DNA from: Armatimonadota bacterium
GTDB lineage: Bacteria; Armatimonadota; UBA10988
NCBI GenBank assembly: GCA_016235455.1
Contig: JACRKZ010000175.1
Location: forward strand, 1 to 16,210
Reading direction: 5' to 3'
DNA: 16,210 nucleotides
Shown here: one piece after another, positions 1 to 15,269 of the stretch
How the letters are laid out: each line of letters begins with the position of its first letter
Position numbering within the stretch: position 1 is the stretch's first letter
The notes under the pieces: model-generated
What the model saw: the letters and a program-made list of their open reading frames with translations, nothing else
Database searches by the model: none
What the model was told of the DNA's origin: nothing
Made by a program: the position numbers and the translations under genes

Positions 1-1703
1 AACGAATCGGCGGCCTGGGTGGCGTGCTCGGCGGCTTGGCGCGTAGCCTGGCCGAGCTGGTGGACCGTGGTGTTGAGCTGGCCCACCTGCTGCGACTGCG
101 ACTGGGTCTCCGCCACCGCCTCATCGCACCACGCCACCAGCCGCCGCAGGCCATCGATGACCTGGGCCAGGTCGCTGCTGAGCCGTCCGGCGAACTGGCG
201 GCTGTGAGTGGCGTCCGCGCGCGAGCCGTGCAGATGGTCGGCCACCTTGTGCGCCGCGCGCTGCACCTGGCCGGCGAAGTGCGCCATCTGCAGATGGACG
301 TTCTGCTCCATGGTGAGCGACCGGCGGTCGGTGCCTTCGGGTGGCGCGCCGGCCAGCGCCAGGCGCTCGGCTCGCTCGGCCACCTCGGCCACTTGCCGCG
401 CCAGCCGCTCCGCCTCGTCGGCGGCGACGCCGGAGCGCTGCAGGTCCCGGCTCATCTGGTGCATGGCCTCGAACCCGGAGTCCGCGGCCTCGCGCGCCTG
501 CGCCGCCGTGAGCCGGGCCGCGCGCGCCTTCTCAGCGGTCTGCGATGAGACCCGGCCCAGGGCGTGTGCCGAGCCGGTCAGGGCGGTCATGGCGACATTC
601 ACCGTATCGCTGGCGTGCGACAGTTCGCGGCTGGCCGTGGCCATCTGGTAGGACGCGCCGGCGATGGCCTGCGAGGTGCCGACCAGGCTGGCGATGGTCG
701 ATTCGATGGGCTCCGAGACCCGGCCCGACAGCCAGCGGCCGAGGGCCATGGTGGCCGCCATGACCACCAGGCAGATGGCCAGCAACGTGGCCTGAAGCCA
801 GCCGAACGGCGCCATGAGACCATCGATGGGCTGCTCGGTGATGACCACCCAACCGCAGTTCGACTCGTCCGGGCCGGCGCCCACGGGCCACGCCGACACT
901 ACCATCTCTGTCCCGCCGGGGTCGGCGCGGAAGGTGGTCTGCCCATGGCCACGCGCCAGGGCCGGCCGGTCGAGCCCGGACAGCAGCGCCGCCGGCTCCT
1001 TGGTGCTCGGCTGGCCCACCGACGCCAGGAGATGATCGGCGCTGGACAGCACCGCCACACCGCGCACGCTGGCCGGCGGCAGCAGCAACGGCGGCAACTG
1101 CTCGCGGCGGTAGCGCAGCACCAGCACGCCGACCAGTTCGTCGCCCGTGTCGCGCACGACCCGCGCGACACGGTACGTGCCCTCGGCGCCGGTAGCCGGC
1201 TCCTCCGCCGACAGGCTGAAGCCGCGGTCAAAGGTGGCCTTGAGCCAACCAGCCCGTGGGTAGCGCGGCCGCGGCGGCTCGCCCGCGGCCGCCAGCACGA
1301 CCCCGCGCCGGTCCACGGCCCACAGGCTGTCGAGCGACGGCTTGGGTCCATACCGGGCGTGGGTGGCCAGCGCCGCGGTCAACTCGCTCGCCAGCGCGCC
1401 GGAACGTAAACCTGGGCTGACGACGAGATCCGGCCCGCCGTTGTCCGGCACACTGACGGCGGCGGCGGCGCTGCCGAAGGCGCGGCGCAAGTCGGGCAGG
1501 GCGGCCAGCGCCTGTCCGTCGGCCAGCGCGTGACTGACGATCTGCTCGGTCCGAGCCGCCAGTACGGCGGCCGTTTCGCCGGATGCCGCGGCCACGTTGC
1601 GCTCCACGGCCTGGCGGGACACGAGCAGTACTACCAACGCCACTGGCCAGACCGTGACTGCCAGAGCCACCGACAAGAGCAGCACTCGATGGGCCAGCTT
1701 CAT
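1..1703 (-). CDS. Methyl-accepting chemotaxis protein-like receptor (TM1, Cache-like sensor, TM2, MCP coiled coil) with degenerate signalling tip; 3' end runs off the window
   Basis: Absent from the ORF track because no stop lies in the window. Manual translation from ATG 1703 gives MKLAHRVLLLSVALAVTVWPVALVVLLVSRQ (TM1), Cache-like motifs (LWAVDRRGVVLAA; GWVVITEQP), TM2 (LLAICLVVMAATMALG), then MCP-type heptads (SYQMATASRELS...AETQSQSQQVGQLNTTVHQLGQATRQAAEHATQAADS). The + strand ORFs 24-548, 564-1409 and 1530-1712 are its antisense shadows. Confidence 0.85.
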   Translation of the reverse strand, partial: MKLAHRVLLLSVALAVTVWPVALVVLLVSRQAVERNVAAASGETAAVLAARTEQIVSHALADGQALAALPDLRRAFGSAAAAVSVPDNGGPDLVVSPGLRSGALASELTAALATHARYGPKPSLDSLWAVDRRGVVLAAAGEPPRPRYPRAGWLKATFDRGFSLSAEEPATGAEGTYRVARVVRDTGDELVGVLVLRYRREQLPPLLLPPASVRGVAVLSSADHLLASVGQPSTKEPAALLSGLDRPALARGHGQTTFRADPGGTEMVVSAWPVGAGPDESNCGWVVITEQPIDGLMAPFGWLQATLLAICLVVMAATMALGRWLSGRVSEPIESTIASLVGTSQAIAGASYQMATASRELSHASDTVNVAMTALTGSAHALGRVSSQTAEKARAARLTAAQAREAADSGFEAMHQMSRDLQRSGVAADEAERLARQVAEVAERAERLALAGAPPEGTDRRSLTMEQNVHLQMAHFAGQVQRAAHKVADHLHGSRADATHSRQFAGRLSSDLAQVIDGLRRLVAWCDEAVAETQSQSQQVGQLNTTVHQLGQATRQAAEHATQAADS

Positions 1704-1848: not shown

Positions 1849-1875
1849 GCCCCCGACGAGCAGAGGCAGGTCGTG

Positions 1876-2976
1876 ATGGGCTGGAGGCAGCCGCGCATAG
1901 GTCGCACAACGGGTCCCCTGGGGCTCGATGTCGGCCACCACAGCATCAAGTTGTCGCAGATCGAGCTCGGCCCCGGCGGCCCGCGGCTCGCGGCGCTGGC
2001 CAGTCGGGCAACGCCGCCCGGCGTATTTGATGGCGACGGCTATCTGGTCGATCCCGACAGCCTGGCGGGCGCCCTGCGGGACATGGCCAACGAGTTGGGT
2101 GTCGCCGGCGCTGATGTCGTCGCCGCGCTGTCCACGCCGTCGGCGCACGTGGCGCTGTTGGACGTGCTGGCCGAGCCCGATGGGGATCTGGCCCCGGCCG
2201 CCTGTCAGCAACTTGCCCCGCTGCTCGACTACCCGCTGGATGAAGCCTCCGTGGTGCTGCGGCTGATGCGCACACCGCCGTATAACGCGGTGGAACCGTA
2301 TGCCCCGGCGTACGTCAAGGTACTAGCCTGCGCGATGCCCGCGGCGCTCGTGGTGGCGCTGGAACAGGCCATCGAGTCCGCGGGGCTGGCGCCGTTGGTC
2401 ATTGAGGCCGCGCCGTTGCCCGCGGGCCATCTCCTACTGGGCGATGGCGCCGGCCCGGCGTCGGTGCTGGTGGGCGACCTGGGCGCCACGCAGACGACCT
2501 GGACGCTGTGGCAGGATCTGCTGCCGGTGTTCGTCACCACCTTGCCTCTCGGTGGGCAGGATCTGACCGAAGCCGCGGCTGGGGTACTCGGTGGCGACCC
2601 GGAGGCGGCCGAGGCTTGGAAGCTCAGCGACCCTTGGGACGAGTCCCTGCCCGCCGCCGCGGCGGTGGCGGACCAGTACCTTAAGTCGCTGCTGCAAGCG
2701 ATCAGTGCGCTGGCGCAGCCGGCGGCGGACGGTGCGCATGAGTCGGCGCCACGCTGGCCGATGTCGCTCATCGTGCTGCACGGCGCGGGCGCGTTGCTGC
2801 GTGACCTGGCACCGCGGTTGGCGGAAGCCACGGGTCTGCGGGTGGAGTGGTTGGACGGTTTTGCCCGGCTGGGCATGGGGATCGACGGAAGCCTGCCCAA
2901 CGAGGTCGGGCGATACTTGCCGCAGTGGGCCAACTGCTTGGGTCTGGCCTGGCGACAGTGGGTCGTGGAGGGCTAA
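1876..2976 (+). CDS. pilM: Type IV pilus assembly protein PilM (actin-like/FtsA fold)
   Basis: Motifs LGLDVGHHSIKL, VGDLGATQT, LPLGGQDLTEA, VLHGAGALL..LA..LAEATGLRVE and C-terminal LGLA. Start moved from 1597 to ATG 1876 (GTG 1873 possible), downstream of the promoter and a GAGGCAGG RBS-like stretch. Confidence 0.88.
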   Translation: MGWRQPRIGRTTGPLGLDVGHHSIKLSQIELGPGGPRLAALASRATPPGVFDGDGYLVDPDSLAGALRDMANELGVAGADVVAALSTPSAHVALLDVLAEPDGDLAPAACQQLAPLLDYPLDEASVVLRLMRTPPYNAVEPYAPAYVKVLACAMPAALVVALEQAIESAGLAPLVIEAAPLPAGHLLLGDGAGPASVLVGDLGATQTTWTLWQDLLPVFVTTLPLGGQDLTEAAAGVLGGDPEAAEAWKLSDPWDESLPAAAAVADQYLKSLLQAISALAQPAADGAHESAPRWPMSLIVLHGAGALLRDLAPRLAEATGLRVEWLDGFARLGMGIDGSLPNEVGRYLPQWANCLGLAWRQWVVEG

Positions 2977-3594
2977 GTGCGCGCGCACGCGAACTTCATC
3001 GGCAACCGGGAAGAGCAACGCCGGCGCGAGACACGGATCGCGGGCTGGGCGTTGGCCTTGGCGGTCGCCTTCGGCCTGGCGCCGCTGTTGCTCGTCGGCC
3101 TGATCCGCCAGGGCGCGGCCGAGCGCGCCACGCTGCTCAAAGACATCAACAAGCGCCGTGAGACCGTGCTCAACAACTTGGTCGGCAGTGCTTGGATGGA
3201 GGCCGAGAACAAGCGGCTCGAGCCCGGCCACAAGGTGGTCGTCGCGGCGCACACCAACCTGGCCAAGTGGACCGAGTTGCTCAACGAGGTGCGCGACCGC
3301 CTGCCCGAGGGCGCCTGGCTCACCCAGGTCAGCATCGCCCGCGCCGACTTCGACGCGGCCAAGCCGCTGGTCCCGGGCACCAGCCCACAGACGGTGATTG
3401 TGGTCGGTACCGCCGCCAAAGCCGAAGCGGTGGGTGCCTACCTGGAACAGCTCAATCGGTCGCCGCTGCTGGCTCGCGCCGTGTTGGTGCGCAGCCATCC
3501 CAGCGAGGCCAAACTGGCTACCGCCACCGCGCCTGCCGTGGACTATGAGTTGCGGGCCGAGGTCAAGCAGCCGATCGCGGAGGGCCAGCCATGA
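2977..3594 (+). CDS. pilN: PilN-family pilus assembly protein
   Basis: N-terminal ANFI resembles the PilM-binding INLL motif; single TM, coiled coil, WTELLNEVRDRLPEGAWLTQVSI and VVGTA...VGAYLEQLNRSPLL. GTG directly follows the pilM stop. Confidence 0.88.
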   Translation: MRAHANFIGNREEQRRRETRIAGWALALAVAFGLAPLLLVGLIRQGAAERATLLKDINKRRETVLNNLVGSAWMEAENKRLEPGHKVVVAAHTNLAKWTELLNEVRDRLPEGAWLTQVSIARADFDAAKPLVPGTSPQTVIVVGTAAKAEAVGAYLEQLNRSPLLARAVLVRSHPSEAKLATATAPAVDYELRAEVKQPIAEGQP

Positions 3595-4817
3595 CCTGCT
3601 GGCAACGACGCTACCGGTCCCTGCTCGTGCTCGCCCTGGGCCTGTTCCTGGCCTTGTCCTTGGTCAACCTGGTGCTGCTACGCAGCGCGGTCAGCCGCTT
3701 CCGCAGCGTCACCAAGCGGCTGGTCCAGGAGCGTGCGGCCCAGAAGGAAGAGGATAAGCGCCTCGGCAAGATGGCCGAGCTGCAGGCCAACCACGACACC
3801 ATCTTGCAGGATATCGGCTCCATCGAAGCCACACCCCCACGCCGGCTGTACCAGGCCACGTTGGTGGCGCAACTGGGCCAGTTCGCCGAGCACAGCGCGG
3901 TCACGCTGCTGGGTGTGACGCCCGACAACGGCGGCGCCCCGGTCGAGAAGGGCCTGCCCGAGTTGCCCAAGGATGGACCGTGGCGCTTTGTCGCGGTGTT
4001 CAGCGGGCACTACAACGACGTCGTCAAACTGGTCGACTCGCTCCAGACCTTCCCCAAGGCGGTCGCGGTGCAGTCGGTCAATCTGCGCGTCGACAAGGCC
4101 CTGCGCGACGGCACCATGCGCGCCGAGATCGTGCTTCTGGCGCGCGAGGTGGCCGGCGTGCGCGACCCCGCCACCATGACCACCATCCCCGTACCGCCAC
4201 CGTCCCTGATGGAGCGGTTCGACCACAACACCATTCGCGACTGGCTCAAGAGCCAAGAGCAGCGGCCGCTCGCCGAAGCGCCGGGTCAGCCCGGCCCTGC
4301 GGCGCCCATGCGGCCCGCGCCCAGTCAGCCCGGGCCGAGCAGCATCACGCCAGGAACTCGAGTTCCGCTGGGCGGATCGGCGCAGCCTGGTGGCGCGCCG
4401 CAACCCGGTCGCCTGCCGTTCGCTCCGGGCGCGGCCACCACGGGAGGCGCGGCACCGACCTCGCCGCCGGGCGTGCCGTTTGGCCGCCGGCGGTCACCTG
4501 GCGCAGGTCAGCCGATGCCGCCGCCGGCTGGCTTGCCGCCGGGCTTCGCGCCGGGCGGGCCGTTCGGCGCGCCACCGGCGCCGTCCGGTCACGGTGGGCC
4601 ACCTGGGCCGAGCACGCCGGACATGCTGCCTGGCCTCGGCCAGAGCCTGCTGCCGGACGATATGGCTCCCGCGCGCAGCATGGCGAACGTTGGGGTGGTT
4701 CGGCGGGTATTCAAGATCATGCGCACGGACGGTCTGTTGCCCGGCGGCGGCAAAGCGGTGACCGACGACGGCCGCGTCGCGGCCAACGACATGCCGGCGC
4801 GAGGGAAGACACGATGA
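3591..4817 (+). CDS. pilO: PilO-family protein with a ~200-aa Pro/Gly-rich C-terminal extension
   Basis: TM, coiled coil, LVAQLGQFAEHSAVTL, FSGHYNDVVKLVDSLQTFPKAVAVQSVNL (PilO-like ferredoxin core). ATGA overlap with pilN. Confidence 0.8.
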   Translation: MTCWQRRYRSLLVLALGLFLALSLVNLVLLRSAVSRFRSVTKRLVQERAAQKEEDKRLGKMAELQANHDTILQDIGSIEATPPRRLYQATLVAQLGQFAEHSAVTLLGVTPDNGGAPVEKGLPELPKDGPWRFVAVFSGHYNDVVKLVDSLQTFPKAVAVQSVNLRVDKALRDGTMRAEIVLLAREVAGVRDPATMTTIPVPPPSLMERFDHNTIRDWLKSQEQRPLAEAPGQPGPAAPMRPAPSQPGPSSITPGTRVPLGGSAQPGGAPQPGRLPFAPGAATTGGAAPTSPPGVPFGRRRSPGAGQPMPPPAGLPPGFAPGGPFGAPPAPSGHGGPPGPSTPDMLPGLGQSLLPDDMAPARSMANVGVVRRVFKIMRTDGLLPGGGKAVTDDGRVAANDMPARGKTR

Positions 4818-5707
4818 GCAGCGAGCCCGAAACCACTACCAGTGAGGCCACTCCGGCCACGCCGGTGACCACCGAGCCGCAGCCCTCGCAGCGGCTGGTG
4901 GTGGCGGCGGTGGCTTGCGTCGCCGTCGTCGGCCTCGTATTTCTCGGCTCGGTGGGCGTCTACGCACTGCGACACCTGCGTCCGCACAAGGCGGACACGA
5001 CCGTGGCCATGGCGGCCAAGGCCGTCGACGACGAACCGTCACTGGTCTCCGAGACGCAGACCCAGGACGGTCGCGACCCATTCCTGGCCCAGGGCATCGC
5101 GGCCACGGCGGATACGGCCATCCCGGTGCCGCCCAAGGACCCGACCGGCCCGGCGCCGGTCGTCATTCCGACGCCCTCGGTGGATCCGCCCAAGACCAAT
5201 CCGACGCCGGCCGCCGACCCGCCGAAGCCGACTCCGAGTACCGAAACCAGCAAGCCCGCGGCGCCCAGCAAGCCGGAGAAGCCCAAGGCCCCGAGCCGCG
5301 CCGAGTTGGCCACGCTCGATCCCGCCTCGCCGCCCGATTGGGTGACCGGCCCGGGCGCGGCCGAGGGTTTGGTCCTGATGGGTCTGGTGGCCAGCGGCAA
5401 GCCGCAAGCGGTGTTTGAGTACGAGGGCAAGGTGGTGCGCCGACGCATCGGCGAAGAGGTGGCCGGCATGACCGTCTCGCGCATCGAGCGCGGTCAGGTG
5501 ATGCTGCGCGACGCCAACTCGGGCGGGCCGGTGAAGGCCTTCTGGCTGACGGTGCGCGAGGGCAACCGCCTGGGCGGCACGCGGTCGGGTCCGGTCAAGA
5601 CTGTGACCCCACCGGCGGACAGTACGTCCGAGTCCAGCGGCTCCGGCTCCAGCGGTTCGGAGTCGAGCGGCGACACGAGCGGCGAGGGCAGCAGCGGTGG
5701 TGAGTAA
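4814..5707 (+). CDS. PilP/GspC-like membrane-anchored protein (297 aa) with Pro-rich linker and Ser/Gly/Glu tail
   Basis: ATG 4814 overlaps the pilO stop (ATGA) behind GAGGGAAG. TM (LVVAAVACVAVVGLVFLGSVGVYAL), GRDPF motif, and a PilP/GspC-HR-like domain LVLMGLVASGKPQAVFEYEGKVVRRRIGEEVAGMTVSRIERGQVMLR. Confidence 0.75.
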   Translation: MSSEPETTTSEATPATPVTTEPQPSQRLVVAAVACVAVVGLVFLGSVGVYALRHLRPHKADTTVAMAAKAVDDEPSLVSETQTQDGRDPFLAQGIAATADTAIPVPPKDPTGPAPVVIPTPSVDPPKTNPTPAADPPKPTPSTETSKPAAPSKPEKPKAPSRAELATLDPASPPDWVTGPGAAEGLVLMGLVASGKPQAVFEYEGKVVRRRIGEEVAGMTVSRIERGQVMLRDANSGGPVKAFWLTVREGNRLGGTRSGPVKTVTPPADSTSESSGSGSSGSESSGDTSGEGSSGGE

Positions 5708-5729
5708 GGCAGCAAGTAGAGGACGCGAT

Positions 5730-7478
5730 ATGGCACGGCGATGGTGGATGCTTGGGTTGGCGGCGCTGCTGACACTGCCGACGGCGGTGCCCGGAGCGTG
5801 GGCCGAAGAGGGCGGCGAAAGCAAGCCCAGCGTTGACGTGCCCGACCAGCGGGCGACGGTCAAGCAATGGGCCTGGGCCAAGGACGACAACAACTCGGTT
5901 GTGCGCCTCAGCCTGGTGCTCAACTGGCCCAAGACTGCGGTGCATTCGGAGTGGATCGGCCAGGGCACGTTCGTGGTCACGGTGCCGAACACGGGGCTCA
6001 AGGCCAACGCCGAGCGCAGCATCGTCATCGCTCAGCCGCCCATCGCCGACGTGCTGTTCGGGGTCGGCGCCGAAGCGGCCGACCTGCAGATCCAAGTGCG
6101 CCTGTCCACGCCCAGCAAGTGCCGCGCCTACGTCGTGCCTTCGCAGTACAAGGTGGTGATCGAGGCCGAGTACCCACCGAGCGTGCCGGCCGCGGCCAAG
6201 AACGACGACGAGGAGACCAAGGAGTTCGGCAAGCAGATCATCACCGCCGAGTTCGTTGACACCGACCTGCGGGTCATCGTCGAGGCGCTGGTCAGCCAGA
6301 GCGGCGCCAACATCATGCTGGCGCCCGAGGTGACCGGCACCTACAGCCTGTCGCTCAAGGAAGTCACGCTGATCGACGCGCTGGACAGCCTGTGGGAGGC
6401 GTGGGGCCTGTGTTGGATGAAGCTGCCGGGCAACATTGTCCTGGTCGGCGCCGAGGCTGAACTGGGCAAGCGCGTGGTCGAGGATGGCATCGAGTTGCCC
6501 AGCGGTTGGTCGGTGGCAGACGTGGCTTCCGTGCTGGCCGCCGAGTTCCCCGAGGTGGCGCCGGCACGCGACATGGCCAGCGTCCCCGCCACCGGTCCGC
6601 TGCCCGTGCGCGGCGAACTGCAGTTCGTGGGCAGGGCACGGCGCTGGGTGGCCAAGCTGCCGAGCAAGGCCGAAGGCACTCCGCCGGTGGTGACGCTGCC
6701 GCCGCGCGACAAGCAGACGACGGTCGTCGTGTGGCCGCGGTATCTCTCCTCGGAGACCGCCGAGGCCAAGCTCAAGGAAGTCTATCCACTGCTGACCATC
6801 ACGCGCGAAGTCGAGACCGGCAAGTTGACCCTGTCCGGCAGTCGCGAGCTGGTGAACAGCGCCAAGACCTTTGTGGACAAGCTCGACTTGCTGGAGGTCG
6901 AGACCGTACCGTTCTACCCGCGGTATGCCAAGCTCGACCAGCTCGAGCCCAAGATCAGGGAGAACTACCCGCAGGTGGTGGTGACGGTCGAAGAGAAGCT
7001 GGGCCGCCTGACGCTCAAGGGCCTGGCCGAAGTCGTGGCGGAGGCGCTCAAGTATGCGCAGAGCCTCGACCAGCCCGATCGCGACTCGACCCGTTTCTAC
7101 CCGCGCTACCTCAAGCTGACCGACGCCGAGACGAAGATCAAGGAGATCTTCCCGACGCTGACGGTGCTGTCCGAGGCCGGGCTGGGCTACCTGACGCTGG
7201 TTGGGCCGCGGGACATGGTCGGCGCCGCGCTGCGCTATGTGCAGACTATTGATGTCGTCGTCGACCCGGTGATCGATGAGTACCTGCACTTCCCCGGCAT
7301 GACCGAGGCCAACCTCAAGGGCCTGGTACCCGCCGACGTGACGCTCGAGCGGCAGTCGTCGGGCGCCAAGGGGCTGTACGTCCGGGTGCGAGGCAAGGAG
7401 TCCGCCGTGGCGCCGCTGCGCCGGCTGGCCGCCCAGTTGCAGGAAGACGCGCGCCAGGCACCCAACGGCACCAAGTAA
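5730..7478 (+). CDS. PilQ-position secreted protein with AMIN-like, N0/STN and about five secretin N-domain repeats; no C-terminal secretin domain
   Basis: ATG 5730 with AGAGGA RBS; signal peptide ending AWA-EE; N0 motif IITAEFVDTDLRVIVEALVSQSGANIMLAPEVTGTYSLSLKEVTLIDALD; N-domain repeats with PRY...LTLxG...LD; ends ARQAPNGTK-stop. Confidence 0.8.
   Translation: MARRWWMLGLAALLTLPTAVPGAWAEEGGESKPSVDVPDQRATVKQWAWAKDDNNSVVRLSLVLNWPKTAVHSEWIGQGTFVVTVPNTGLKANAERSIVIAQPPIADVLFGVGAEAADLQIQVRLSTPSKCRAYVVPSQYKVVIEAEYPPSVPAAAKNDDEETKEFGKQIITAEFVDTDLRVIVEALVSQSGANIMLAPEVTGTYSLSLKEVTLIDALDSLWEAWGLCWMKLPGNIVLVGAEAELGKRVVEDGIELPSGWSVADVASVLAAEFPEVAPARDMASVPATGPLPVRGELQFVGRARRWVAKLPSKAEGTPPVVTLPPRDKQTTVVVWPRYLSSETAEAKLKEVYPLLTITREVETGKLTLSGSRELVNSAKTFVDKLDLLEVETVPFYPRYAKLDQLEPKIRENYPQVVVTVEEKLGRLTLKGLAEVVAEALKYAQSLDQPDRDSTRFYPRYLKLTDAETKIKEIFPTLTVLSEAGLGYLTLVGPRDMVGAALRYVQTIDVVVDPVIDEYLHFPGMTEANLKGLVPADVTLERQSSGAKGLYVRVRGKESAVAPLRRLAAQLQEDARQAPNGTK
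6732..7260 (+). repeat. Three tandem ~60-aa secretin N-domain repeats, flanked by two more diverged copies
   Basis: WPRYL (6732), FYPRYA (6912), FYPRYL (7095), spaced 180-183 nt; DNA ttctacccgcggtatgccaagctc versus ttctacccgcgctacctcaagctg. Confidence 0.8.
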
Positions 7479-7511
7479 CAGGCCGCCCGCGCGGCAGGAG
7501 GCAGGGCCCAG

Positions 7512-8840
7512 GTGAATGCTCGACCCGACGATCCGCTGGCGCTGCTCGTTGCGGAGTACCTTCGCACGCGCGACACCGCGGTGCGGGACGAGATTGTGCT
7601 CGCCGCCATCGACCTGGTCGAGCACATCGCGCAGCGCTACCGCTTCGCCGCCGAGCCGGTGGAGGACCTCATCCAGGAAGGCACCATCGGCCTGATCAAC
7701 GCGGTCGAGATGTTCGATGGCAGCCGGGGGGTGAAGTTCACCACTTACGCGTCCCACGCGGTGCAAGGCGCCATCCAGCACTACCTGCGCGACAAGGGCA
7801 AGCTGATCCGCGAGCCGGGCTGGCTACACGATCTCAACCAGAAGATCGGCAAGGCCCGCGGGCGGCTCAACCACACGCTCGGCCGTGAGCCGTCGTCCGC
7901 CGAGTTGGCGGCCGACCTGCAGATGCCCGAGCAGCAGGTGAGCGACGCCCTGGCCACGCGCGGCGTGTTCCGGGTCAGTTCGCTCGAGCAGCCGCAGGGC
8001 GACGAGGGCGACGGTACCTACAGCGTCGTGGAGCACGATGCGGCGCGCGTGGAGCTGCCCGAGAACGCCGAGACCCCCGTGGTGGACCGGCTGGCCATCG
8101 AGGAGGCCCTCGGACGCCTGCGCGCCATGGAGCGGCAGGTCGTGCTCGACTTCTTCTTCAACGACCTCTCCAAGACCGAGATTGCCCGCCGTCTGGGTTA
8201 CTCGTCGAGCCACGTGGCCCATCTGCTGCGGCGCGCGCTCAAGCAGCTCAAGGATGCGTTGATCGTCGATGAGCGCAACCTGGTCCGCCGGCAACTACGC
8301 AGCCTGGAAGGCCAGTTGGCCGACTATGCTCGACGCGTGGAAGAAGAGACGATCCGCGACGACCTGACCGGGCTGTACAACCGACGGTATCTGCTGGACC
8401 GCTTGGATGAGGAGCTGTCACGCTGCCAGCGCTACGGCTTCCTGCTCAGTGTCGTGCTGGTCGATCTCGATGGATTCGAGGCGTATCTGGGCGAGCACGG
8501 TCGCGCCGAGGCGGATCAGGCGCTGATGGCCGTGGCCCGGCTGCTGACAGCGGCCTCGCGTCGCATCGACCGCATCTGCCGCTACGACGAGCGCCGCTTC
8601 CTGCTGCTGCTGCCCAACACCGGTCAACAATCGACGGTGCTGTGTGAGCGCCTCGTCGCCGCCGTCGACGCGCTGGAGCTCGGGCCGGGCGCGGCCGATG
8701 CCGGCCGTATCCGTGCCGTGTGCGGCATCGCTGTCTATCCTCTGGCCGGCGCCGATGCCGACGCGCTCATCGCCGCGGCAAACGACGCGGTGGTTCGGGG
8801 CCGTGCCAGCGGGCAGGGCGTGGTCATTTCGGGTGCGTAG
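7512..8840 (+). CDS. SigB/SigF/SigG-family sigma-70 factor fused to a degenerate GGDEF domain
   Basis: AGGAGG RBS at 7496-7501, GTG start. Region 2 EDLIQEGTIGLINAVEMFDGSRGVKFTTYA..YLRDKG; region 3 LGREPSSAELAADL; region 4 LSKTEIARRLGYSSSHVAHLLRRAL; helical linker; then DDLTGLYNRRY, VVLVDLDGF, RRIDRICRYDERRF, CGIAVYP. Confidence 0.92.
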   Translation: MNARPDDPLALLVAEYLRTRDTAVRDEIVLAAIDLVEHIAQRYRFAAEPVEDLIQEGTIGLINAVEMFDGSRGVKFTTYASHAVQGAIQHYLRDKGKLIREPGWLHDLNQKIGKARGRLNHTLGREPSSAELAADLQMPEQQVSDALATRGVFRVSSLEQPQGDEGDGTYSVVEHDAARVELPENAETPVVDRLAIEEALGRLRAMERQVVLDFFFNDLSKTEIARRLGYSSSHVAHLLRRALKQLKDALIVDERNLVRRQLRSLEGQLADYARRVEEETIRDDLTGLYNRRYLLDRLDEELSRCQRYGFLLSVVLVDLDGFEAYLGEHGRAEADQALMAVARLLTAASRRIDRICRYDERRFLLLLPNTGQQSTVLCERLVAAVDALELGPGAADAGRIRAVCGIAVYPLAGADADALIAAANDAVVRGRASGQGVVISGA

Positions 8841-8909: not shown

Positions 8910-10622
8910 ATGCGACGTTGGTCTGATCTGATGTACCTCGGCTGGTCGTTGGCCTTGGCCGCGCTGGTCGGCGTGTTGTTGTCCGGCGCCTCCGGCGCCT
9001 GGCTCGGCTGGGCGCTGCTGCCGTTGGCGGCTGGCGTCGTGCTGGGCCGCTGCGCCGAGTTGTCGCGGGCGGAGTCCTTCGCCCATGCCGCGTTCGTGGC
9101 TGCTGGCGTGGCCGCCTTCGGCTCGCTCAGCGATGCCAATCCCGGCGTCTGTGCCGTGCTCGCGGCCGGCTCGCTGCTGACCATGGCTGGCCTGGCGCGC
9201 TGGGGCAACCGCGCCACACGCATCTGGGTGGCGGCGATGGTGCTGCTCATCACCCTGGGTGCCGCGATTGCGCTCAACCGCGCCGTGCCCGGCGCCGCCG
9301 GCCGGCTGGCGGCCGAGCCGAGCCGCGATCTGCCCACCTCGGCCCTGGCCGATCAGCCCGAGATGTTCCTGCCGCTCGACCTCGACGACGCGGGTCGGCG
9401 CGTGGCCTTGTGGTCCATCCTCGACTCCGAGCAGACCGACGATGCACAGTCGATCTGGTCGCTGGACGTCAACGACGGCACGCTGCACAAGGTCTTCCAC
9501 GGCTATCCGCTGCCCCTCCTGGAATGGTCGCCAGCCGGCGATCGCTTGGTCTACCCAGCCTCCGAGAAGCCCTGGGATGAGGGCGCCGTGCCGTTCGGCA
9601 TCCATGTCGGAGCCGCCGCCGGCGGCTCGTCCAAGCGGTTGCCAGCCCCGGCTGATGGCGGCTCCTGGATGTACCCGAGTTGGTCCAAGCAGGGCAATCG
9701 GCTGGGCGTGTGGCGCCTGCCCGAAGCTCCGGAGTTCGGCTCCGTCGGTCCCCTCCGCGACCTACCGCGCAGCTTCGTGCTCTCGCCCGATGGCGGCGAG
9801 CCCACCGAGATCGCCGTCAAGGGCTGCCGGCTCTCGCTGCTCTCGGCCTGGGAGGCCGGCGGCGAGGGCGCGCTGATGATGACCGAGCACGGCATCTACT
9901 TGGTGCGGCCCGATGCCAAGCCCAAGCGGCTGGTCGCCGCCGGCGAGGCGCCGCTAGACCCGTTCCCGATGCCGCTGCAGTCCGGCGTGGCGCAGGATGG
10001 CAAGCACATTGCTTACCTCGAGCTGACCTTCAAGGGCGGCGACATCGACCGCATCGACGTCAACGTGATCGACATGAACGGCCGTGGCCGTGGCGGTATC
10101 GCCAACATCGTGCCGCTGGCCATGGGCTGGTCGGCCGATGGCAAGCTGTTCGCCGCGCTCACCCAGAACCGCCGCGGCGAGTTGCTGGTGAACGTGCTGG
10201 ATCCCGAGACGCGCCGCGTCAAGTCACTGCGCACCGGCCTGAAGCGCACCGACGAGGACTTCCCCTGCCGGCTGAGCGTCAGCCGCGATGGCAAGGTCGT
10301 GGCCATCAACGGCCCGCTCGACAAGGGTGCCATGCTGTCCGTGGCTATGGTGGATCTGACCAGCGGTGAGACCAAGCTGCTGCCCAACTGCCACAATCAC
10401 CTGGCCAGCGGCTGGCGACCTGACGGCTGGCTGGTGGTGAGCGACACGCAGACCGTCTCCGCAGTCTCGCCCGCTGGACAGCGCCAACCGATCTTCGTAC
10501 CGAGCGCCGCGGGCCGGTCCGAGGACCTGTGCTCCACCGCCATGCTGGAGACCACCTTCCGCCAGCCCATCGAGCGGCTGCAAGTGGCCGCCGAGATGGC
10601 CGTGCAACTGGCCCGCAAGTAG
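8910..10622 (+). CDS. Multi-pass membrane protein with C-terminal TolB/PD40-like beta-propeller
   Basis: About five hydrophobic helices in the first ~125 aa, then propeller-blade motifs WSPAGDRLVY, PSWSKQGNRL, QDGKHIAY, WSADGKLFA, SRDGKVVA, WRPDGWLV. ATG 8910 follows GGGGAG. Confidence 0.78.
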   Translation: MRRWSDLMYLGWSLALAALVGVLLSGASGAWLGWALLPLAAGVVLGRCAELSRAESFAHAAFVAAGVAAFGSLSDANPGVCAVLAAGSLLTMAGLARWGNRATRIWVAAMVLLITLGAAIALNRAVPGAAGRLAAEPSRDLPTSALADQPEMFLPLDLDDAGRRVALWSILDSEQTDDAQSIWSLDVNDGTLHKVFHGYPLPLLEWSPAGDRLVYPASEKPWDEGAVPFGIHVGAAAGGSSKRLPAPADGGSWMYPSWSKQGNRLGVWRLPEAPEFGSVGPLRDLPRSFVLSPDGGEPTEIAVKGCRLSLLSAWEAGGEGALMMTEHGIYLVRPDAKPKRLVAAGEAPLDPFPMPLQSGVAQDGKHIAYLELTFKGGDIDRIDVNVIDMNGRGRGGIANIVPLAMGWSADGKLFAALTQNRRGELLVNVLDPETRRVKSLRTGLKRTDEDFPCRLSVSRDGKVVAINGPLDKGAMLSVAMVDLTSGETKLLPNCHNHLASGWRPDGWLVVSDTQTVSAVSPAGQRQPIFVPSAAGRSEDLCSTAMLETTFRQPIERLQVAAEMAVQLARK

Positions 10623-10629
10623 GCCTGGG

Positions 10630-12606
10630 CTAGGGCGACGGCGCCATTCGCCACGGCACGGTGGCCGGCTGGCGGAACGGGCCGTCGCCCAGCCGGCTGA
10701 CCATGGCGTCGGTCAGGTTCTCGAACGCGAACAGGCAGACGCCTTTCAACCCGGCCTCGCGCGCGGCATACACTTGGTCGATCACCGCTTGGCTATTGTC
10801 TTCCAGCTTGTAGGCGCCGATGCCGCCAAAGATCTGGCCGCGCAGCCGCTCGTCGTCCACTGCGGCCAGTTCGTCGCCAATGCGCTTCTGGAACTTGCCC
10901 AGGTCGGTGTTGTAGGCCATGGGGCAGAGGAAGTTCACATACCCGCGGGCCAGCCAGGTGCGCCCGTCGCGGCGCACCTCGCTCAAGTCGGTCCGACGCG
11001 TGCCGCCCGCCGCGGAGACGACAATATCGGGCTTGACCGCGCGCGCCGCCGTCGAGCAGCGCCGCACGAGTTCGGTCACCTGGTCGACGCGCCACTGGTC
11101 CCAGACGAGCTCGGAACCCGGCTTGAGGCCTGTGCGTGCCGTGTTGACGATGCCGTGCTTCTCACCAAGCCAGGCCACCGCATTGGCCACCAGTCGCTGT
11201 ACCGCGGCGCTCTCGGCCGCGGCGCCCAGGTAGCAGTGGAAGTTCACCGACAGGATCGTGCCCTCGCCATAGGACTTCCAGGCCAATGCCGGCCGGCCGT
11301 CGGCAAAGCTGGCCAGCACCTGCGCACCGGCCGCCGATTGGCACAGGTTGCCCGACACGCGCAGCGCCAGCGAGGCCGGCACACCGGCCAGCACCGGATG
11401 GTCGGCCGCCGCCGCGAGCAGGCTCATCGGCACGTTGTCCGCGTAGGTGCGGCCAGTCAGGCCCACCGCGTCGGCCAGCGTGGCATCGTCGGTGACGGCC
11501 ACCGGCCCATCCAGGATCAGCACCGCGCCGCCTTCGCGCGCGAACCGCAGCACGCGCGCGATCTGCTCGGGCGGCACTTTGCCCGGATAGAGGTTGCCCG
11601 CCACAAGCACGGTGCGGCGCGACAGCATGGCCAGGTTCTCGGCCTCGACCAGCGCCGGCCGGTAGCCCGCCTGGCCCAAGAAGGCTTGCTGAGCAGCCAG
11701 CAACGAGCGGCCTTCGGTCTGGTGGTACTGGGTGCGGAGCAGCCTCATGCCGTTGCCGCTGGCCACTCCGGAGCGCAAGGCCAGCGGGTCGAAGCCCTTC
11801 TCCGCGAGGAACAGCCGCCGCGTGAACTCGCTGTAGTCGTAGTCAGTGTCGTACTCGTGGCGGATGTAGTCGTAGCTGACGCCGTCGACACCAGTGGCGG
11901 CCACCTCGGCGACGATCTGGCAGAGGAACTCGCGCACGCCTGGATGCGCCGGGTTGAGCCAGCCGTTGACCCGCTGGCCATGGCGGTCGACAACGAACCA
12001 CTCGGGCCGCAGGCACGGATGCTTGGTCAAGCCGCCGTGCAGCATGATCAGGTACGGATGCACCTGAATGCCGGCCGCATGCGCTGCCTTGGCCAGTTCG
12101 CGCAGCGGGTCGAAGCCCGCGGGCACGTCAGGATTGGTCGGCAGCAGGCGGCTGCGCCACATGGCCTGATGCGGGTAGTTGGCCAGCGGCAGCAAGGCGT
12201 TGAGCCCCGCTCGCGAGGCCCGGGCAACCGTGCGCGCGATGGCCTGCGGATTGGCGTAGTCCTCCCAATGCAGCCACGAGCCGCGGAACTCGCCGGGCAC
12301 GGGCTGGCAGGTGAAGGACTTGGCCAACGCCGGCACCGCAGCCACCGGACTGAGCGCGGCGGCCGCTGTCGGTTGCGCGGCCGGCGGCCCTGGCGGAGCG
12401 GGCGGCTGGCCCAAATCGAGCCCGCCGGATCCGCTGCCGGCGACATCGGCCGGCCGGGTCGCCGCGGGCTCGTCGCCGCCGCTGGGCCCACACAACGCCA
12501 GGATCACCAGTGCCAGCGCCACCGGCGCCGTGCCGGCCAAGAGCCAGCGTCGCGGCGAGCGCCAGCCACGCTTGGCCGCTTCGTTCGGTTGCCAGATAAG
12601 TGCCAA
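10630..12606 (-). CDS. Family 10 glycoside hydrolase-like protein (GHL10/DUF187-type) with an inserted ThuA/GATase1-like domain and N-terminal membrane anchor
   Basis: EFRGSW, AGLNALL, FDPLRELAKAAHAAGIQVHPY, WLNPAHPGVREF, VDGVSYDYIRH, WDQWRVDQVTELV, WLARGYVNFLCPMAY. TTG start with AAGGA RBS at 12620-12616. Confidence 0.85.
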   Translation of the reverse strand: MALIWQPNEAAKRGWRSPRRWLLAGTAPVALALVILALCGPSGGDEPAATRPADVAGSGSGGLDLGQPPAPPGPPAAQPTAAAALSPVAAVPALAKSFTCQPVPGEFRGSWLHWEDYANPQAIARTVARASRAGLNALLPLANYPHQAMWRSRLLPTNPDVPAGFDPLRELAKAAHAAGIQVHPYLIMLHGGLTKHPCLRPEWFVVDRHGQRVNGWLNPAHPGVREFLCQIVAEVAATGVDGVSYDYIRHEYDTDYDYSEFTRRLFLAEKGFDPLALRSGVASGNGMRLLRTQYHQTEGRSLLAAQQAFLGQAGYRPALVEAENLAMLSRRTVLVAGNLYPGKVPPEQIARVLRFAREGGAVLILDGPVAVTDDATLADAVGLTGRTYADNVPMSLLAAAADHPVLAGVPASLALRVSGNLCQSAAGAQVLASFADGRPALAWKSYGEGTILSVNFHCYLGAAAESAAVQRLVANAVAWLGEKHGIVNTARTGLKPGSELVWDQWRVDQVTELVRRCSTAARAVKPDIVVSAAGGTRRTDLSEVRRDGRTWLARGYVNFLCPMAYNTDLGKFQKRIGDELAAVDDERLRGQIFGGIGAYKLEDNSQAVIDQVYAAREAGLKGVCLFAFENLTDAMVSRLGDGPFRQPATVPWRMAPSP

Positions 12607-12621
12607 GCCACACAGTCCTTG

Positions 12622-12641
12622 GTGCGGGCCGCGGCCCGCAC
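12622..12641. repeat. Perfect 20-bp palindrome in the GHL10 leader
   Basis: GTGCGGGCCGCGGCCCGCAC is its own reverse complement; it lies between a minus-strand TACACT (12653-12648) and the RBS. Confidence 0.7.
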
Positions 12642-12788
12642 GCTCACAGTGTACCGGTTGGTGGCGCGACAGGGGAAGGCTACGGCCGACTCGCTACGTA
12701 ACACCGGGCGAAGCAGCTTGCTAGCAGAATCGCGCGGCACAGCGTGCGCCGCGGCCCGATCCGCCAGCCAGTCCCAGGCTCGCGGCGC

Positions 12789-12817
12789 TTGCGCGCAGGC
12801 GGGGTTAGTGTCACACT
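12789..12817 (+). promoter_or_regulatory. Putative sigma70 promoter of the metal ABC transporter operon
   Basis: TTGCGC (12789-12794), 17 nt, CACACT (12812-12817), preceded by TGn (extended -10). Confidence 0.45.
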
Positions 12818-12835
12818 TGCAATAGTATTGCGAGT
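12815..12835. promoter_or_regulatory. Fur-family (probably Zur) operator, 10-1-10 inverted repeat
   Basis: ACTTGCAATA-G-TATTGCGAGT, one mismatch; AT-rich in a high-GC background; 6 nt upstream of the znuA ATG. Confidence 0.72.
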
Positions 12836-12841
12836 AGACAG

Positions 12842-13738
12842 ATGCGACGCGCCTTGGTACTCACGTTCTCGCTGTTGGCCCTGGCCGGTTGCCGCCCCGC
12901 GGCCGCGCCGGCGGGGCGGCCGATTGTCGCGGCCACGATCTTCCCGCTGGCCTCGCTGGTGCAGCAGCTGGTGGGCAGCGAAGCGGACGTGGTGACGCTG
13001 GCGCCGAGCGGGGCGAGCCCGCACACGCTCGACCTGACCCCAGAGACGGCCCGGCAGTTGTCTTCGGCCAGCCTGGTGGTGCGCGTCGGTCCGGGCCTGG
13101 ACGACTGGGTTGCCAACCTGGCCGGGCCGCGGGCCGCGGTGTTCGAGGCCATGGGGCACGTCACGTTGCTGGACGGCAATCCCGAGACCGACCACGACCA
13201 TCTGGCGCACACTGGCGGCGCGCTCGACAAGGACCCGCATGTCTGGCTCGATCCGGATCTCATGGGGCGCGAGTTTGTGCCGGCGCTGGCCGCCCGGCTC
13301 ACCGAGCTGGGCATCCGCGGCGTCGAGCCGCGCGCGGCGGCGCTGAGGCGTGACCTGGCCGCGCTGGACGCCGAACTTTCCGCGCAACTCAAGCCGCTGC
13401 GGCAGCGCCGCTATGCCGGTGCGCATCCCGCCTGGGGCTATTTCAACCGGCGCTACGGGCTGGAGATGGTGGCGGCCGTCGAGCCCGTCGGCGGCTCGGA
13501 GCCGTCCGCGCGCTGGCTGCGCGAAGTGATCGAGACGGTCAAAGCCAAGGGTGCCGGCTGCCTGTTCACCGAGGTCCAGCTCAGCGACAAGCTCGACCGC
13601 GCCGTGGCCAAGGAGGCCGGCGTGCGCGTCGGCGTGTTGGATCCGCTGGGCGGGCCGGACATCGTCGGCCGCAACAGCTACGCCGCGATCATGCGCTACA
13701 ACGCGAAGCAATTCGTCGACGGCCTGGGGGGGAGCTGA
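12842..13738 (+). CDS. znuA: Zn/Mn ABC transporter substrate-binding lipoprotein (ZnuA/TroA family)
   Basis: Lipobox LAGC; VAATIFPL, GASPHTLDLTP, short His loop DHDHLAH, DPHVWLDP, HPAWGYF, EPS, LDPLG. Confidence 0.92.
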   Translation: MRRALVLTFSLLALAGCRPAAAPAGRPIVAATIFPLASLVQQLVGSEADVVTLAPSGASPHTLDLTPETARQLSSASLVVRVGPGLDDWVANLAGPRAAVFEAMGHVTLLDGNPETDHDHLAHTGGALDKDPHVWLDPDLMGREFVPALAARLTELGIRGVEPRAAALRRDLAALDAELSAQLKPLRQRRYAGAHPAWGYFNRRYGLEMVAAVEPVGGSEPSARWLREVIETVKAKGAGCLFTEVQLSDKLDRAVAKEAGVRVGVLDPLGGPDIVGRNSYAAIMRYNAKQFVDGLGGS

Positions 13739-14454
13739 TGACGACGGTCCTCGAATGCGACGACCTGCGCTTCGCCTATGGCGCCACGGAAGTGCTATGC
13801 GGCGTCAGCTTCTCCTTGCCCGCTCACGGCTTTGTCGGGCTGATCGGCGCCAACGGTTGTGGCAAGTCCACGCTCATGCGACTGCTGCTGGGCCTGCTCA
13901 CGCCGACCACAGGCCGTGTGAGCATCCTCGGCGAGCCACCGCTGGCCGCGGTGCGCCGGGGTGAGGTGGGGTATGTGCCCCAGCGCGACACCTTCTCTCG
14001 CACGTTCCCGCTGTCGGTGCAGGATGTCGTGGTCATGGGCCGCAGCGGCCGCATCGGGCTGGGCCGGCGGCCGAGCCAGGCGGACCGCGACGCGGCGCTG
14101 GCTGCGCTGGAGCGCGTAGGCGCGGTCGAGTGGCGTCGACGCAGCTTCGGCCGGCTGAGCGGAGGTCAGCAGCGGCTGGTGCTGGTGGCGCGGGCACTGG
14201 CCCAGGAGCCGCGCGTGCTGCTCATGGATGAAGCCGACACCGGCCTCGACGAACGGCGCCGGCAACACATCTACGATGTGCTGGCCGAGGTGCGACGGGA
14301 ACGCGATCTGAGCATCCTGGCCATCAGCTACCAGTTCGATGTGCTGGCCGGCGTCGTCGACTCCGCTGTGGCGCTGCGTGATGGCCGCTCGGTGGAATGG
14401 TGCCCGACGCACATGACCCACGCCCTGGCCGAGCACTTGGAGCCGACGCCGTGA
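13738..14454 (+). CDS. znuC: Metal ABC transporter ATP-binding protein (ZnuC-like)
   Basis: Walker A GANGCGKST, VGYVPQ, FPLSVQDVVVMGR, LSGGQQR, Walker B LLMDE; Cys/His tail CPTHMTH. TGATG coupling to znuA. Confidence 0.92.
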   Translation: MTTVLECDDLRFAYGATEVLCGVSFSLPAHGFVGLIGANGCGKSTLMRLLLGLLTPTTGRVSILGEPPLAAVRRGEVGYVPQRDTFSRTFPLSVQDVVVMGRSGRIGLGRRPSQADRDAALAALERVGAVEWRRRSFGRLSGGQQRLVLVARALAQEPRVLLMDEADTGLDERRRQHIYDVLAEVRRERDLSILAISYQFDVLAGVVDSAVALRDGRSVEWCPTHMTHALAEHLEPTP

Positions 14455-15269
14455 ACGATCTGATCGGCCTGTTCGGCTACGACTTCGCCCAACGCGCCCT
14501 GGCGGCCGGCCTGCTGTTGTCGGTCCTGGCCTCGCTGGTGGGCTTCTTTGTGGTATTGCGGCGCATGGCGTTCGTCGCCGTGGGCATCAGCCACGCCGCG
14601 CTGGGCGGCGTGGCCTTGGGTGTGCTGCTGGGCCAGTCGCCGACCGTCTGGGCCATCGCCTTCAGCATCGCCGTGGCGCTGGGCATGGCCGCGCTCGGGC
14701 GGCGCGGCATGGCCGAAGACACCGCCATGGGCGTGTTCTTCCCGGCGGCCATGGCCTTTGGTGTGGTGGTCATCGGCATGTCGAGCACCTGGCAACGCGA
14801 TCTGCTGACCTACCTCTTCGGCAACATCCTGGCCGTGCAGTCGAGCGACCTGTGGCTGCTGGGCGGGGTGACCGGCGTCGTCGTGCTGGTGACCGCGCTG
14901 TTCTTCAAGGAGCTCTTGTTCATCAGCTTCGATGAGGAGAGCGCCCACGCCGCCGGCGTGCCCGTGGCGCCGCTGCGCTCGCTGTTGCTGGTGCTCACGG
15001 CGGTGACCGTGGTGGTGTCCATCAAGGTCGTCGGCACGGTGCTGGTCAGCGCCATGCTGGTCATCCCGGCGGCGGCGGCGACCCAGGTCACACGGCGCTG
15101 GCAACCGATGCTGCTGGTCTCCGGACTGGTCTCCGCGGGCTCGCTGTTTGTCGGCCTGCTGGTCAGCTTCACCGCACCCAAGGGGCTGAATGTGCCGGTG
15201 GGTGCGGCAGCGGTGCTGGTCTCGGCCGCAGCCTTCGCGCTGGCCACGCTGGTCGGGCGCCGCGGCTAG
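14451..15269 (+). CDS. znuB: Metal ABC transporter permease (ZnuB/ABC-3 family)
   Basis: FAQRALAAG, VVLRRMAF..GISHAALGG, YLFGNILAV, ISFDEESA, IKVVGTVLVSAMLVIPAAAA. Start moved to GTG 14451 (GTGA overlap, GGAG RBS). Confidence 0.92.
   Translation: MNDLIGLFGYDFAQRALAAGLLLSVLASLVGFFVVLRRMAFVAVGISHAALGGVALGVLLGQSPTVWAIAFSIAVALGMAALGRRGMAEDTAMGVFFPAAMAFGVVVIGMSSTWQRDLLTYLFGNILAVQSSDLWLLGGVTGVVVLVTALFFKELLFISFDEESAHAAGVPVAPLRSLLLVLTAVTVVVSIKVVGTVLVSAMLVIPAAAATQVTRRWQPMLLVSGLVSAGSLFVGLLVSFTAPKGLNVPVGAAAVLVSAAAFALATLVGRRG

Follow-up and report, generated by a model that had tools for sequence, protein, structure and literature searches.

The stretch analyzed here, hereafter the window, comprises 16,210 nucleotides (nt) of contig JACRKZ010000175.1 from the genome of an Armatimonadota bacterium (assembly GCA_016235455.1) and has a G+C content of about 70%. 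Positions 7512..8840 of its plus strand are occupied by a gene for a protein of 442 amino acids (aa), followed by a stop codon, in which an RNA polymerase sigma factor is joined through a helical stalk to a GGDEF domain, the domain of the diguanylate cyclases that make c-di-GMP (cyclic dimeric guanosine monophosphate). The gene model is supported by the list of open reading frames (ORFs), four Pfam domains and an N-terminus that can be aligned with homologs; the GTG start codon is preceded, 9 nt upstream, by a Shine-Dalgarno sequence AGGAGG seen on inspection (7497..7502, plus strand). The gene is present in a single copy in the source genome. It is separated by a 33-nt gap from the upstream gene, whose stop codon lies at 7476-7478, and ends a row of pilus genes. 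We describe this sigma-GGDEF fusion, which recurs across the phylum, as a candidate c-di-GMP-gated sigma factor linked to type IV pili. Coordinates refer to the plus strand unless stated otherwise.

Regions 2, 3, and 4 of a sigma factor were all found, each with a Pfam match above its cut-off. Region 2 spans residues 34-96 (7611..7799; Sigma70_r2, PF04542, E 1.4e-14), region 3 spans residues 109-177 (7836..8042; Sigma70_r3, PF04539, E 7.4e-13), and region 4 with its helix-turn-helix spans residues 199-250 (8106..8261; PF04545 and PF08281, the Sigma70_r4 match covering residues 199-247 with E 5.7e-9). No region 1 family was among the matches. Region 2 is the segment with the highest conservation in the family alignment (mean 0.76), and unfused relatives terminate at the end of region 4, near residue 250. 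Judged by these domains, the protein is predicted to be a full group-3 sigma factor and, since region 3 is present, to lie outside the extracytoplasmic function (ECF, group 4) sigma factors. Its best resemblance is to SigB/F/G: the top NCBIfam model was TIGR02980 with 173.4 bits, under the cut-off of 234.35, followed by the SigF model NF005644 (145 bits, cut-off 261), while the FliA/WhiG model TIGR02479 gave 110.6 bits (cut-off 189.6).

The stalk, residues 251-280 (8262..8351), was delimited by AlphaFold2, conservation, and Foldseek, and is unbroken from the last helix of region 4. The AlphaFold2 monomer, based on 39 homologs, had a mean predicted local distance difference test score (pLDDT) of 81 and a predicted template modeling score (pTM) of 0.44; it contains one uninterrupted helix at residues 232-279, starting inside region 4 and entering the GGDEF fold directly. 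The linker between regions 3 and 4 (residues 154-188) is predicted to be disordered, with pLDDT below 50. The GGDEF-fold domain occupies residues 281-435 (8352..8816; PF00990, E 1.6e-27, with a score of 96.7 bits where the cut-off is 23.8), and a genome-wide domain search gave the same coordinates. In Foldseek comparisons the N-terminal half matched Staphylococcus aureus SigB and sigma-S in holoenzyme structures, and the stalk with the GGDEF domain matched cyclases with coiled-coil stalks, namely, the phytochrome cyclase 5llw, WspR, a GCN4-WspR fusion, DgcB, and SiaD; TM-scores reached 0.88 against isolated solved GGDEF domains. These results agree with a preliminary description made from the letters alone, which had reported complete sigma regions 2–4, a coiled-coil-like linker (helical in the model), and a GGDEF fold from a DDLTG motif at nt 8358, which is residue 283. 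Its SigB/F/G label stands as the best-scoring model and falls short as a formal assignment, the score being below the cut-off.

The fusion is not peculiar to this contig. A word-indexed protein search returned 243 proteins, and from the best 120 listed, 39 full-length protein clusters with the same architecture were taken, originating from five data sources and being 33-88% identical. Both sigma and GGDEF Pfam domains were required, and P0023, P0027, P0030, and P0031 were excluded for want of a GGDEF annotation. Database records give these proteins no names beyond 'diguanylate cyclase,' 'RNA polymerase sigma-B factor,' and 'sigma-70 family RNA polymerase sigma factor.' When a single genome of each species was scanned, 80 loci were obtained. 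The fusion family accounts for 67 of them (L001-L067), and all of these that are labeled to phylum or lower belong to Armatimonadota (Fimbriimonadales, Chthonomonadales, Armatimonadia, and 'Zipacnadia'), some being titled only 'bacterium'; the other loci, L068-L080, encode plain sigma factors from other phyla, with matches confined to residues ~12-250. In a profile search of 301 Armatimonadota genomes, each at least 80% complete, matches at E <= 1e-50 were found in 265 genomes, including 217 of the 252 high-quality ones, and in 148 of the 163 genera. In 44 of these 265 genomes, the best match was weaker than 1e-70; five genomes with weak matches (E 1e-51 to 1e-69) were inspected, and all proved sigma-only, three of the genes being located directly behind STAS and RsbW-like genes. 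The fusion was therefore counted in about 221 of the 301 genomes, this being the number of strong matches (E <= 1e-74) taken from the match table by E-value.

The idea that the fusion is an artefact of assembly, frameshift, or read-through is refuted for practical purposes. It could draw on the frameshift seen in one locus (L002, protein P0023) and on the few relatives that are sigma-only. An uninterrupted frame, on the other hand, was found in the 39 clusters and in about 150 genome matches: the ~150 strongest matches listed all span both halves, nearly all of them without internal stops, and several of the fusion-bearing genomes are assembled in one or a few contigs. With 39 clusters, 67 loci, and about 221 of 301 genomes, the fusion is real and widespread in Armatimonadota and, as far as can be read from the sequences, combines two known kinds of parts, a degenerate-GGDEF receptor and a group-3 sigma factor. 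The frameshift in L002/P0023 falls precisely where the GGDEF domain begins. When a tree was built from the sigma part with FastTree and rooted at the midpoint, the 97 non-redundant fusions were placed in one clade of 102 tips together with five unfused or cut forms, and P0027, P0030, and P0031 nest among the fusions with weak support. The support of the clade is only 0.34, so no inference on a single origin is drawn.

For residue-level comparison, the 39 proteins and the ORFs of the 67 loci (106 sequences) were reduced to 98 of 400-600 residues without X and then to 97 non-redundant family members, 31-88% identical to the window protein. The catalytic motif GG[DE]EF is replaced by DERRF in the window protein (8586..8600), and the motif [GAS]G[DE]EF occurs in none of the 97 members, its five positions varying freely. 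The metal-binding aspartate position, 318, carries D in the window protein and in only 11 of the 97 members; the guanine-binding asparagine position, 326, is L in the window protein and variable in the family; residues F322-D335 occupy the place of the substrate motif FKxxNDxxGHxxGD. The domain is thus predicted to be no longer able to make c-di-GMP. Retained cyclase activity through a non-canonical active site is highly improbable: the fold is intact and one NCBI record bears the name diguanylate cyclase, but the motif count and the five free positions speak against it, and in the control set of 59 nearest ordinary GGDEF proteins from the same protein search, the active site was kept in 54 cases and the ligands of metal and base were kept in 58-59. 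When 1.84 billion representatives were searched with just the GGDEF part as query, there were 271,891 matches at E <= 0.001 and only 11 at E <= 1e-30, and the domain is therefore by overall sequence an ordinary GGDEF derivative rather than a separate family.

The allosteric inhibitory site (I-site) presents the opposite picture. Its RxxD motif, R350-R-I-D353 (8559..8570), is located five residues on the N-terminal side of the former active site. In the cyclase PleD, the I-site consists of R359, D362, and R390, together with R313 of an adjacent GGDEF domain, according to the review PMC7288161. In the fusion family, R350 and D353 were each found in 96 of the 97 members, R380 (8649..8651), the third primary residue, in 95, and R304 in 94, with K in two more. 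The distance between R304 and R350 is 46 residues, as between R313 and R359 of PleD, so that R304 corresponds by spacing to the cross-linking arginine R313; D353 and R380 are 27 residues apart versus 28 in PleD, where R390 takes the place of R380. These equivalences to PleD were derived from spacing and alignment offsets rather than from a residue-level alignment. When the protein was aligned by phmmer to DgcR, a cyclase of solved structure (6zxm), RRIDRICRYDERRF stood opposite RKSDIISRFGGEEF, RxxD on RxxD, and both mutated positions of the deposited DgcR I-site mutant, 6zxb, fell on R350 and D353.

The domain region (from residue 281) has 162 positions, of which only 11 are conserved in at least 95% of members, namely, D283, T286, R297, E300, E301, R304, R307, R350, D353, P368, and R380; this set includes each of the four I-site residues. 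Five of the 11 form a face of helix alpha1 (R297, E300, E301, R304, and R307; 8400..8432), kept in 92-96 of 97 members. R297 and E301 are each present in 96 of 97 members versus 21 and 36 of the 59 generic GGDEF domains, and the alpha1 face around R304 is therefore more constrained in the fusion family. Sequence comparison thus indicates that the I-site was kept almost perfectly while the whole catalytic apparatus eroded. The preliminary description had called the domain a dead GGDEF with an intact I-site, reading RRID through RY-DERRF at nt 8559-8600 (residues 350-363) as the aligned motifs and noting the replaced substrate motif; these assignments were reproduced, and the conservation of RxxD in homologs, which it had set as a test beforehand, was found in 96 of 97 members; like this one, the other refuting conditions that it had named and that computation can address came out in favor of its reading.

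In the source genome, eight GGDEF matches (five of them strong) and two EAL matches were identified; the organism is thus predicted to encode a c-di-GMP messenger system. It is improbable that the domain senses a nucleotide other than c-di-GMP, be it GTP, (p)ppGpp, or a further cyclic dinucleotide, by way of either the active-site remnant or the I-site. PDB entries 9g85 and 9g86 are titled as PleD with ppGpp and pppGpp as well as c-di-GMP, as far as their titles tell. In the fusion family, the guanine-, metal-, and phosphate-side positions are variable, position 318 being the example given above, and constraint is visible at the I-site only. Some degenerate GGDEF domains do bind GTP.

The stalk and GGDEF domain (residues 232-442) were modeled as two copies with four c-di-GMP molecules in three runs, along with three controls. 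The homodimer scored 0.55 (0.53, 0.59, and 0.55 in the individual runs) versus 0.00 for the best control. Such a score was attained in calibration by 20 of 30 homo-pairs of solved structure and by 1 of 23 proteins whose structures had been solved as single chains. The runs had at least 43% of contacts in common, and the pLDDT of the partner was at least 82. The modeled interface brings residues 350-352 and 368-369 of one copy against residues 300, 303-304, and 307-308 of the other, that is, the I-site against the conserved alpha1 face, and only the last residues of the stalk (276-281) touch. The modeled geometry is that of product-inhibited cyclase dimers cross-linked by c-di-GMP. The preliminary description had considered control by dimerization of the linker; this part found little support, the modeled contact being mainly between I-site and alpha1 and the stalk being variable in length. 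A register-dependent coiled-coil switch is likewise not favored because of the low stalk conservation (0.32) and the insertions and deletions at residues 271-276.

The same interface could be read in another way: the dead GGDEF domain may be a c-di-GMP-independent protein-protein module, either a constitutive dimerizer or a dock for an active cyclase, a pilus component, or RNA polymerase, with the conserved arginines and acidic residues forming a protein interface instead of a nucleotide pocket. Degenerate GGDEF domains acting via protein contacts have been described. The excess conservation of R297 and E301 over generic domains suggests a family-specific surface, this region makes direct protein contacts in the dimer model, and the output of the model does not give the placement of the ligands. 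Nevertheless, we consider this explanation unlikely: the four I-site residues are kept together, in 94-96 of 97 members and with PleD spacing, an exact set that a pure protein interface would not need, and the source genome encodes a c-di-GMP system.

The genomic context connects the fusion to type IV pili. In the window, the sigma-GGDEF gene is the sixth in a same-strand row and closes a pilMNOPQ-like set (1873..7478) identified by Pfam matches to PilM_2, PilN, and Secretin_N, with boundaries drawn by analysis of GC content at third codon positions. The row comprises pilM (1873/1876-2976; PilM_2), pilN (2977-3594; PilN), two membrane-anchored proline-rich ORFs with no Pfam family (3591-4817 and ~4811-5707), and, in the position of pilQ, a gene for a 593-aa Secretin_N-repeat protein with a signal peptide (5697-7478). 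The last protein, recognized by a weak Secretin_N match, has three tandem repeats of ~65 aa and no Secretin (PF00263) barrel domain, and is conserved at 44% identity in relatives. The same row was found in two relatives of the same family (L001/L088 and L085).

Across the phylum, tblastn was applied to the 57 of 67 loci with at least 1500 nt of upstream sequence. In 29 of the 57, a same-strand pilC stops fewer than 400 nt upstream of the fusion, and 32 have some pilus gene within 7 kb upstream. The commoner order is Secretin, PilB-size T2SSE, PilT-size T2SSE, T2SSF (PilC), and then the fusion. In most lineages, the sigma-GGDEF gene is the last gene of a type IV pilus operon, and these operons, absent from the preliminary description, are its most informative context. 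Since the gene ends such operons, its regulon probably includes genes for pili or surface behavior. In two loci, L044 and L045, pilin genes directly follow the fusion. At L080:5587-8726, in a metagenome-assembled genome of Thermoleophilia, PilT and PilC are followed by a plain SigB/F/G-like sigma factor of 246 aa, 33% identical to the sigma half, which has no GGDEF domain, ends where the stalk begins in the fusion, and holds the same operon position; this sigma lineage may therefore have been linked to pili before the fusion arose.

Several features of these pilus regions were noted in passing. About 100 nt 5' of the pilin genes of L044 (~9380-9400) and L045 (~9900-9915), the sequence TTGTGGAA[TC]AAC is present, which may be a regulatory site or merely reflect the shared ancestry of two related loci. 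The cyanobacterial SigF promoter TAGGC/GGTAA was not seen by eye in the upstream regions of the L044 and L045 pilin genes, no systematic scan being made. The unusually long gap of ~810 nt between pilC and the fusion at L055:1355-2200 contains direct repeats of a ~60-nt unit with flanking repeated blocks. The source genome encodes a very large paralog family of 97-99 pilin-like ORFs of ~200-290 aa with nearly identical prepilin-type N-termini (FTLIELLVVIAIIAILAAILFPVF...), spread over many contigs (e.g., C1:34008, C32:5445-8436, and C65:5145-6891).

Genes for a classical partner-switching control were missing beside the fusion. A tblastn search for RsbW or STAS homologs found none on the contig of the window, and in the 67 loci the fusion is flanked by pilus genes or by other genes of varied kinds. 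The nearest unfused sigma paralog in the source genome (G000:C110:11101-12568, 38% identity), on the contrary, is located directly behind STAS and RsbW-like genes, and the sigma-only best matches in other families of the phylum also adjoin such genes. The RsiG motif ExxxSxxRxxxQxxxD was detected neither in the six reading frames of the window nor in any of the 97 family members. The earlier remark that no anti-sigma gene is adjacent is consistent with these observations.

Taken as a c-di-GMP-gated, pilus-linked sigma factor, a reading for which the sequence evidence suggests a probability of roughly 0.6, the protein could operate as follows. c-di-GMP, probably as an intercalated dimer, would bind the I-site at R350, D353, and R380 and bridge to R304 of a second molecule, gluing two GGDEF domains together with I-site against alpha1. 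The resulting dimer would change the availability of the attached sigma factor to RNA polymerase. High c-di-GMP could sequester the sigma factor, and the protein would act as its own c-di-GMP-armed anti-sigma factor. This direction, in which high c-di-GMP inactivates the sigma factor, is a tentative guess by analogy with cyclase immobilization and with RsiG-WhiG, the odds being somewhat against it. In cyclases such as PleD, product inhibition immobilizes the enzyme via the I-site cross-link. A pilus regulon is suggested by the gene context and by two precedents considered below, WhiG of Rubrobacter and SigF of Synechocystis, the latter with pilA1.

A number of observations weigh against this reading or limit it. 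The I-site by itself is not distinctive: RxxD was found in 53 of the 59 control proteins and the full four-residue set in 33 of 59. Since RxxD is common in ordinary cyclases, the argument relies on retention of the I-site after decay of the active site and not on its presence. The stalk is the segment with the lowest conservation (mean 0.32), variable in length and with insertions and deletions at 271-276, and the AlphaFold2 monomer, with its pTM of only 0.44, is uninformative on the placement of the GGDEF domain relative to the sigma domains. The homodimer was modeled with ligands only, the calibration set being ligand-free, and since the geometry matches solved cyclase dimers, the score may partly reflect memory of solved structures. 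Three clusters of unfused forms of 246-273 aa (P0027, P0030, and P0031), 57-58% identical and ending just after region 4, exist among relatives.

The pilus link has its exceptions as well. No pilus gene was found upstream in 25 of the 57 loci, many of them titled Chthonomonadales or Chthonomonadaceae, and in five genomes of one family (f17) the fusion is missing although 2-3 GGDEF genes and pilC are present, which means that co-loss was not seen. The 300-nt stretches preceding 97 pilin-like genes of the source genome were enriched only in ribosome-binding and sigma-A-like words, the gaps between pilC and the sigma gene in 33 loci contained no shared motif, and no usable target motif emerged. 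What the analysis shows is the domain architecture, an active site that is gone, an I-site that was selectively kept, a distribution across the phylum, and a pilus gene context; c-di-GMP binding, dimerization, switch direction, and regulon are steps that we infer.

In the remaining part of the window, downstream of the fusion, a possibly co-transcribed ORF (8910..10622) with several N-terminal membrane helices and no Pfam family had no tblastn matches in related loci and is not conserved beside the fusion elsewhere. It is followed by a convergent gene for a GHL10-like, glycosyl-hydrolase-like protein (10630-12606, minus strand), znuA, znuC, and znuB (12842-15269), and an M42 aminopeptidase gene (15266-16210, minus strand). 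A plus-strand ORF at 10774-12825, longer than the GHL10-like gene, was rejected as spurious by third-position GC. Upstream of the pilus row, a divergent gene with no family assigned and a signal- or membrane-helix-like N-terminus (3-1703, minus strand) runs off the start of the window. In the 169-nt gap before pilM (1704-1872), only a sigma-A-like TTGTGC-17-TATACT was read by eye; scanning the window with a consensus revealed no sigma-70-type promoter and no same-strand terminator beside the sigma-GGDEF gene.

Among known regulators, a similar principle is found in Actinomycetota. c-di-GMP is known to act on transcription via dedicated transcription factors and, in one described case, via the anti-sigma factor RsiG, which requires the messenger for holding the sigma factor WhiG. 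The authors of PMC8325347 regard RsiG-(c-di-GMP)-WhiG as the one sigma/anti-sigma complex known to be a target of c-di-GMP and report that it controls type IV pili in Rubrobacter. Like RsiG-WhiG of Streptomyces and Rubrobacter, the fusion is an alternative sigma factor under c-di-GMP control, proposed in the case of the fusion. The sensors differ: in the former, the sensor is a separate coiled-coil anti-sigma factor with ExxxSxxRxxxQxxxD, and in the fusion it would be the covalently attached I-site of a GGDEF domain. The phylum is also different, and the sigma part of the fusion resembles SigB/F/G (173 bits) more closely than FliA/WhiG (111 bits). SigF, which belongs to the group-3 sigma factors, drives the pilin gene pilA1 in Synechocystis according to PMC2532724; cyanobacterial SigF is of the SigB/F/G type like the fusion sigma factor but has no fused sensor domain. 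Regulation in cis by a C-terminal extension, the principle proposed here, is known for ECF41 and similar sigma factors, the subject of PMC3426412. These, however, are group 4 proteins without region 3, unlike the fusion, and their extensions are not known to be receptors of nucleotide messengers.

The GGDEF half has parallels of its own. PleD, WspR, and DgcR share with the predicted structure of the fusion the stalk-GGDEF layout and the I-site/alpha1 dimer, and have the same four-residue I-site with nearly the same spacing; in the fusion the catalytic site is missing, and the regulated domain is an N-terminal sigma factor instead of a receiver or other sensor. Proteins of the PelD, PopA, and SgmT type have a dead GGDEF fold that retains RxxD and serves as a c-di-GMP receptor for an attached or associated output. 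Those outputs are polysaccharide synthesis, proteolysis targeting, and kinase localization, none being known as a sigma factor. Compared with this type, the fusion family additionally conserves the arginine equivalent to R313 and the alpha1 face. No description of the architecture was found in a full-text literature search with subscription journals and supplements largely outside its scope, in line with the earlier remark that no characterized sigma factor carrying a GGDEF-type sensor was known, and the literature search found no regulatory studies of such kind in Armatimonadota.

The strongest form of the proposal is that this is the first sigma factor reading a nucleotide second messenger through its own domain, a phylum-wide, self-contained sigma/anti-sigma factor that is glued by c-di-GMP, gates pilus or surface genes, and is convergent with RsiG and WhiG; we place it only a little short of even odds. 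If true, it would represent a third and simpler wiring of c-di-GMP to transcription and extend the idea of 'one-component' sigma factors beyond the ECF group. The allosteric half of an enzyme would have survived as a sensor after decay of the catalytic half. The family is large, and its members are soluble proteins of about 440 residues; they would offer a testable entry into gene regulation in Armatimonadota.

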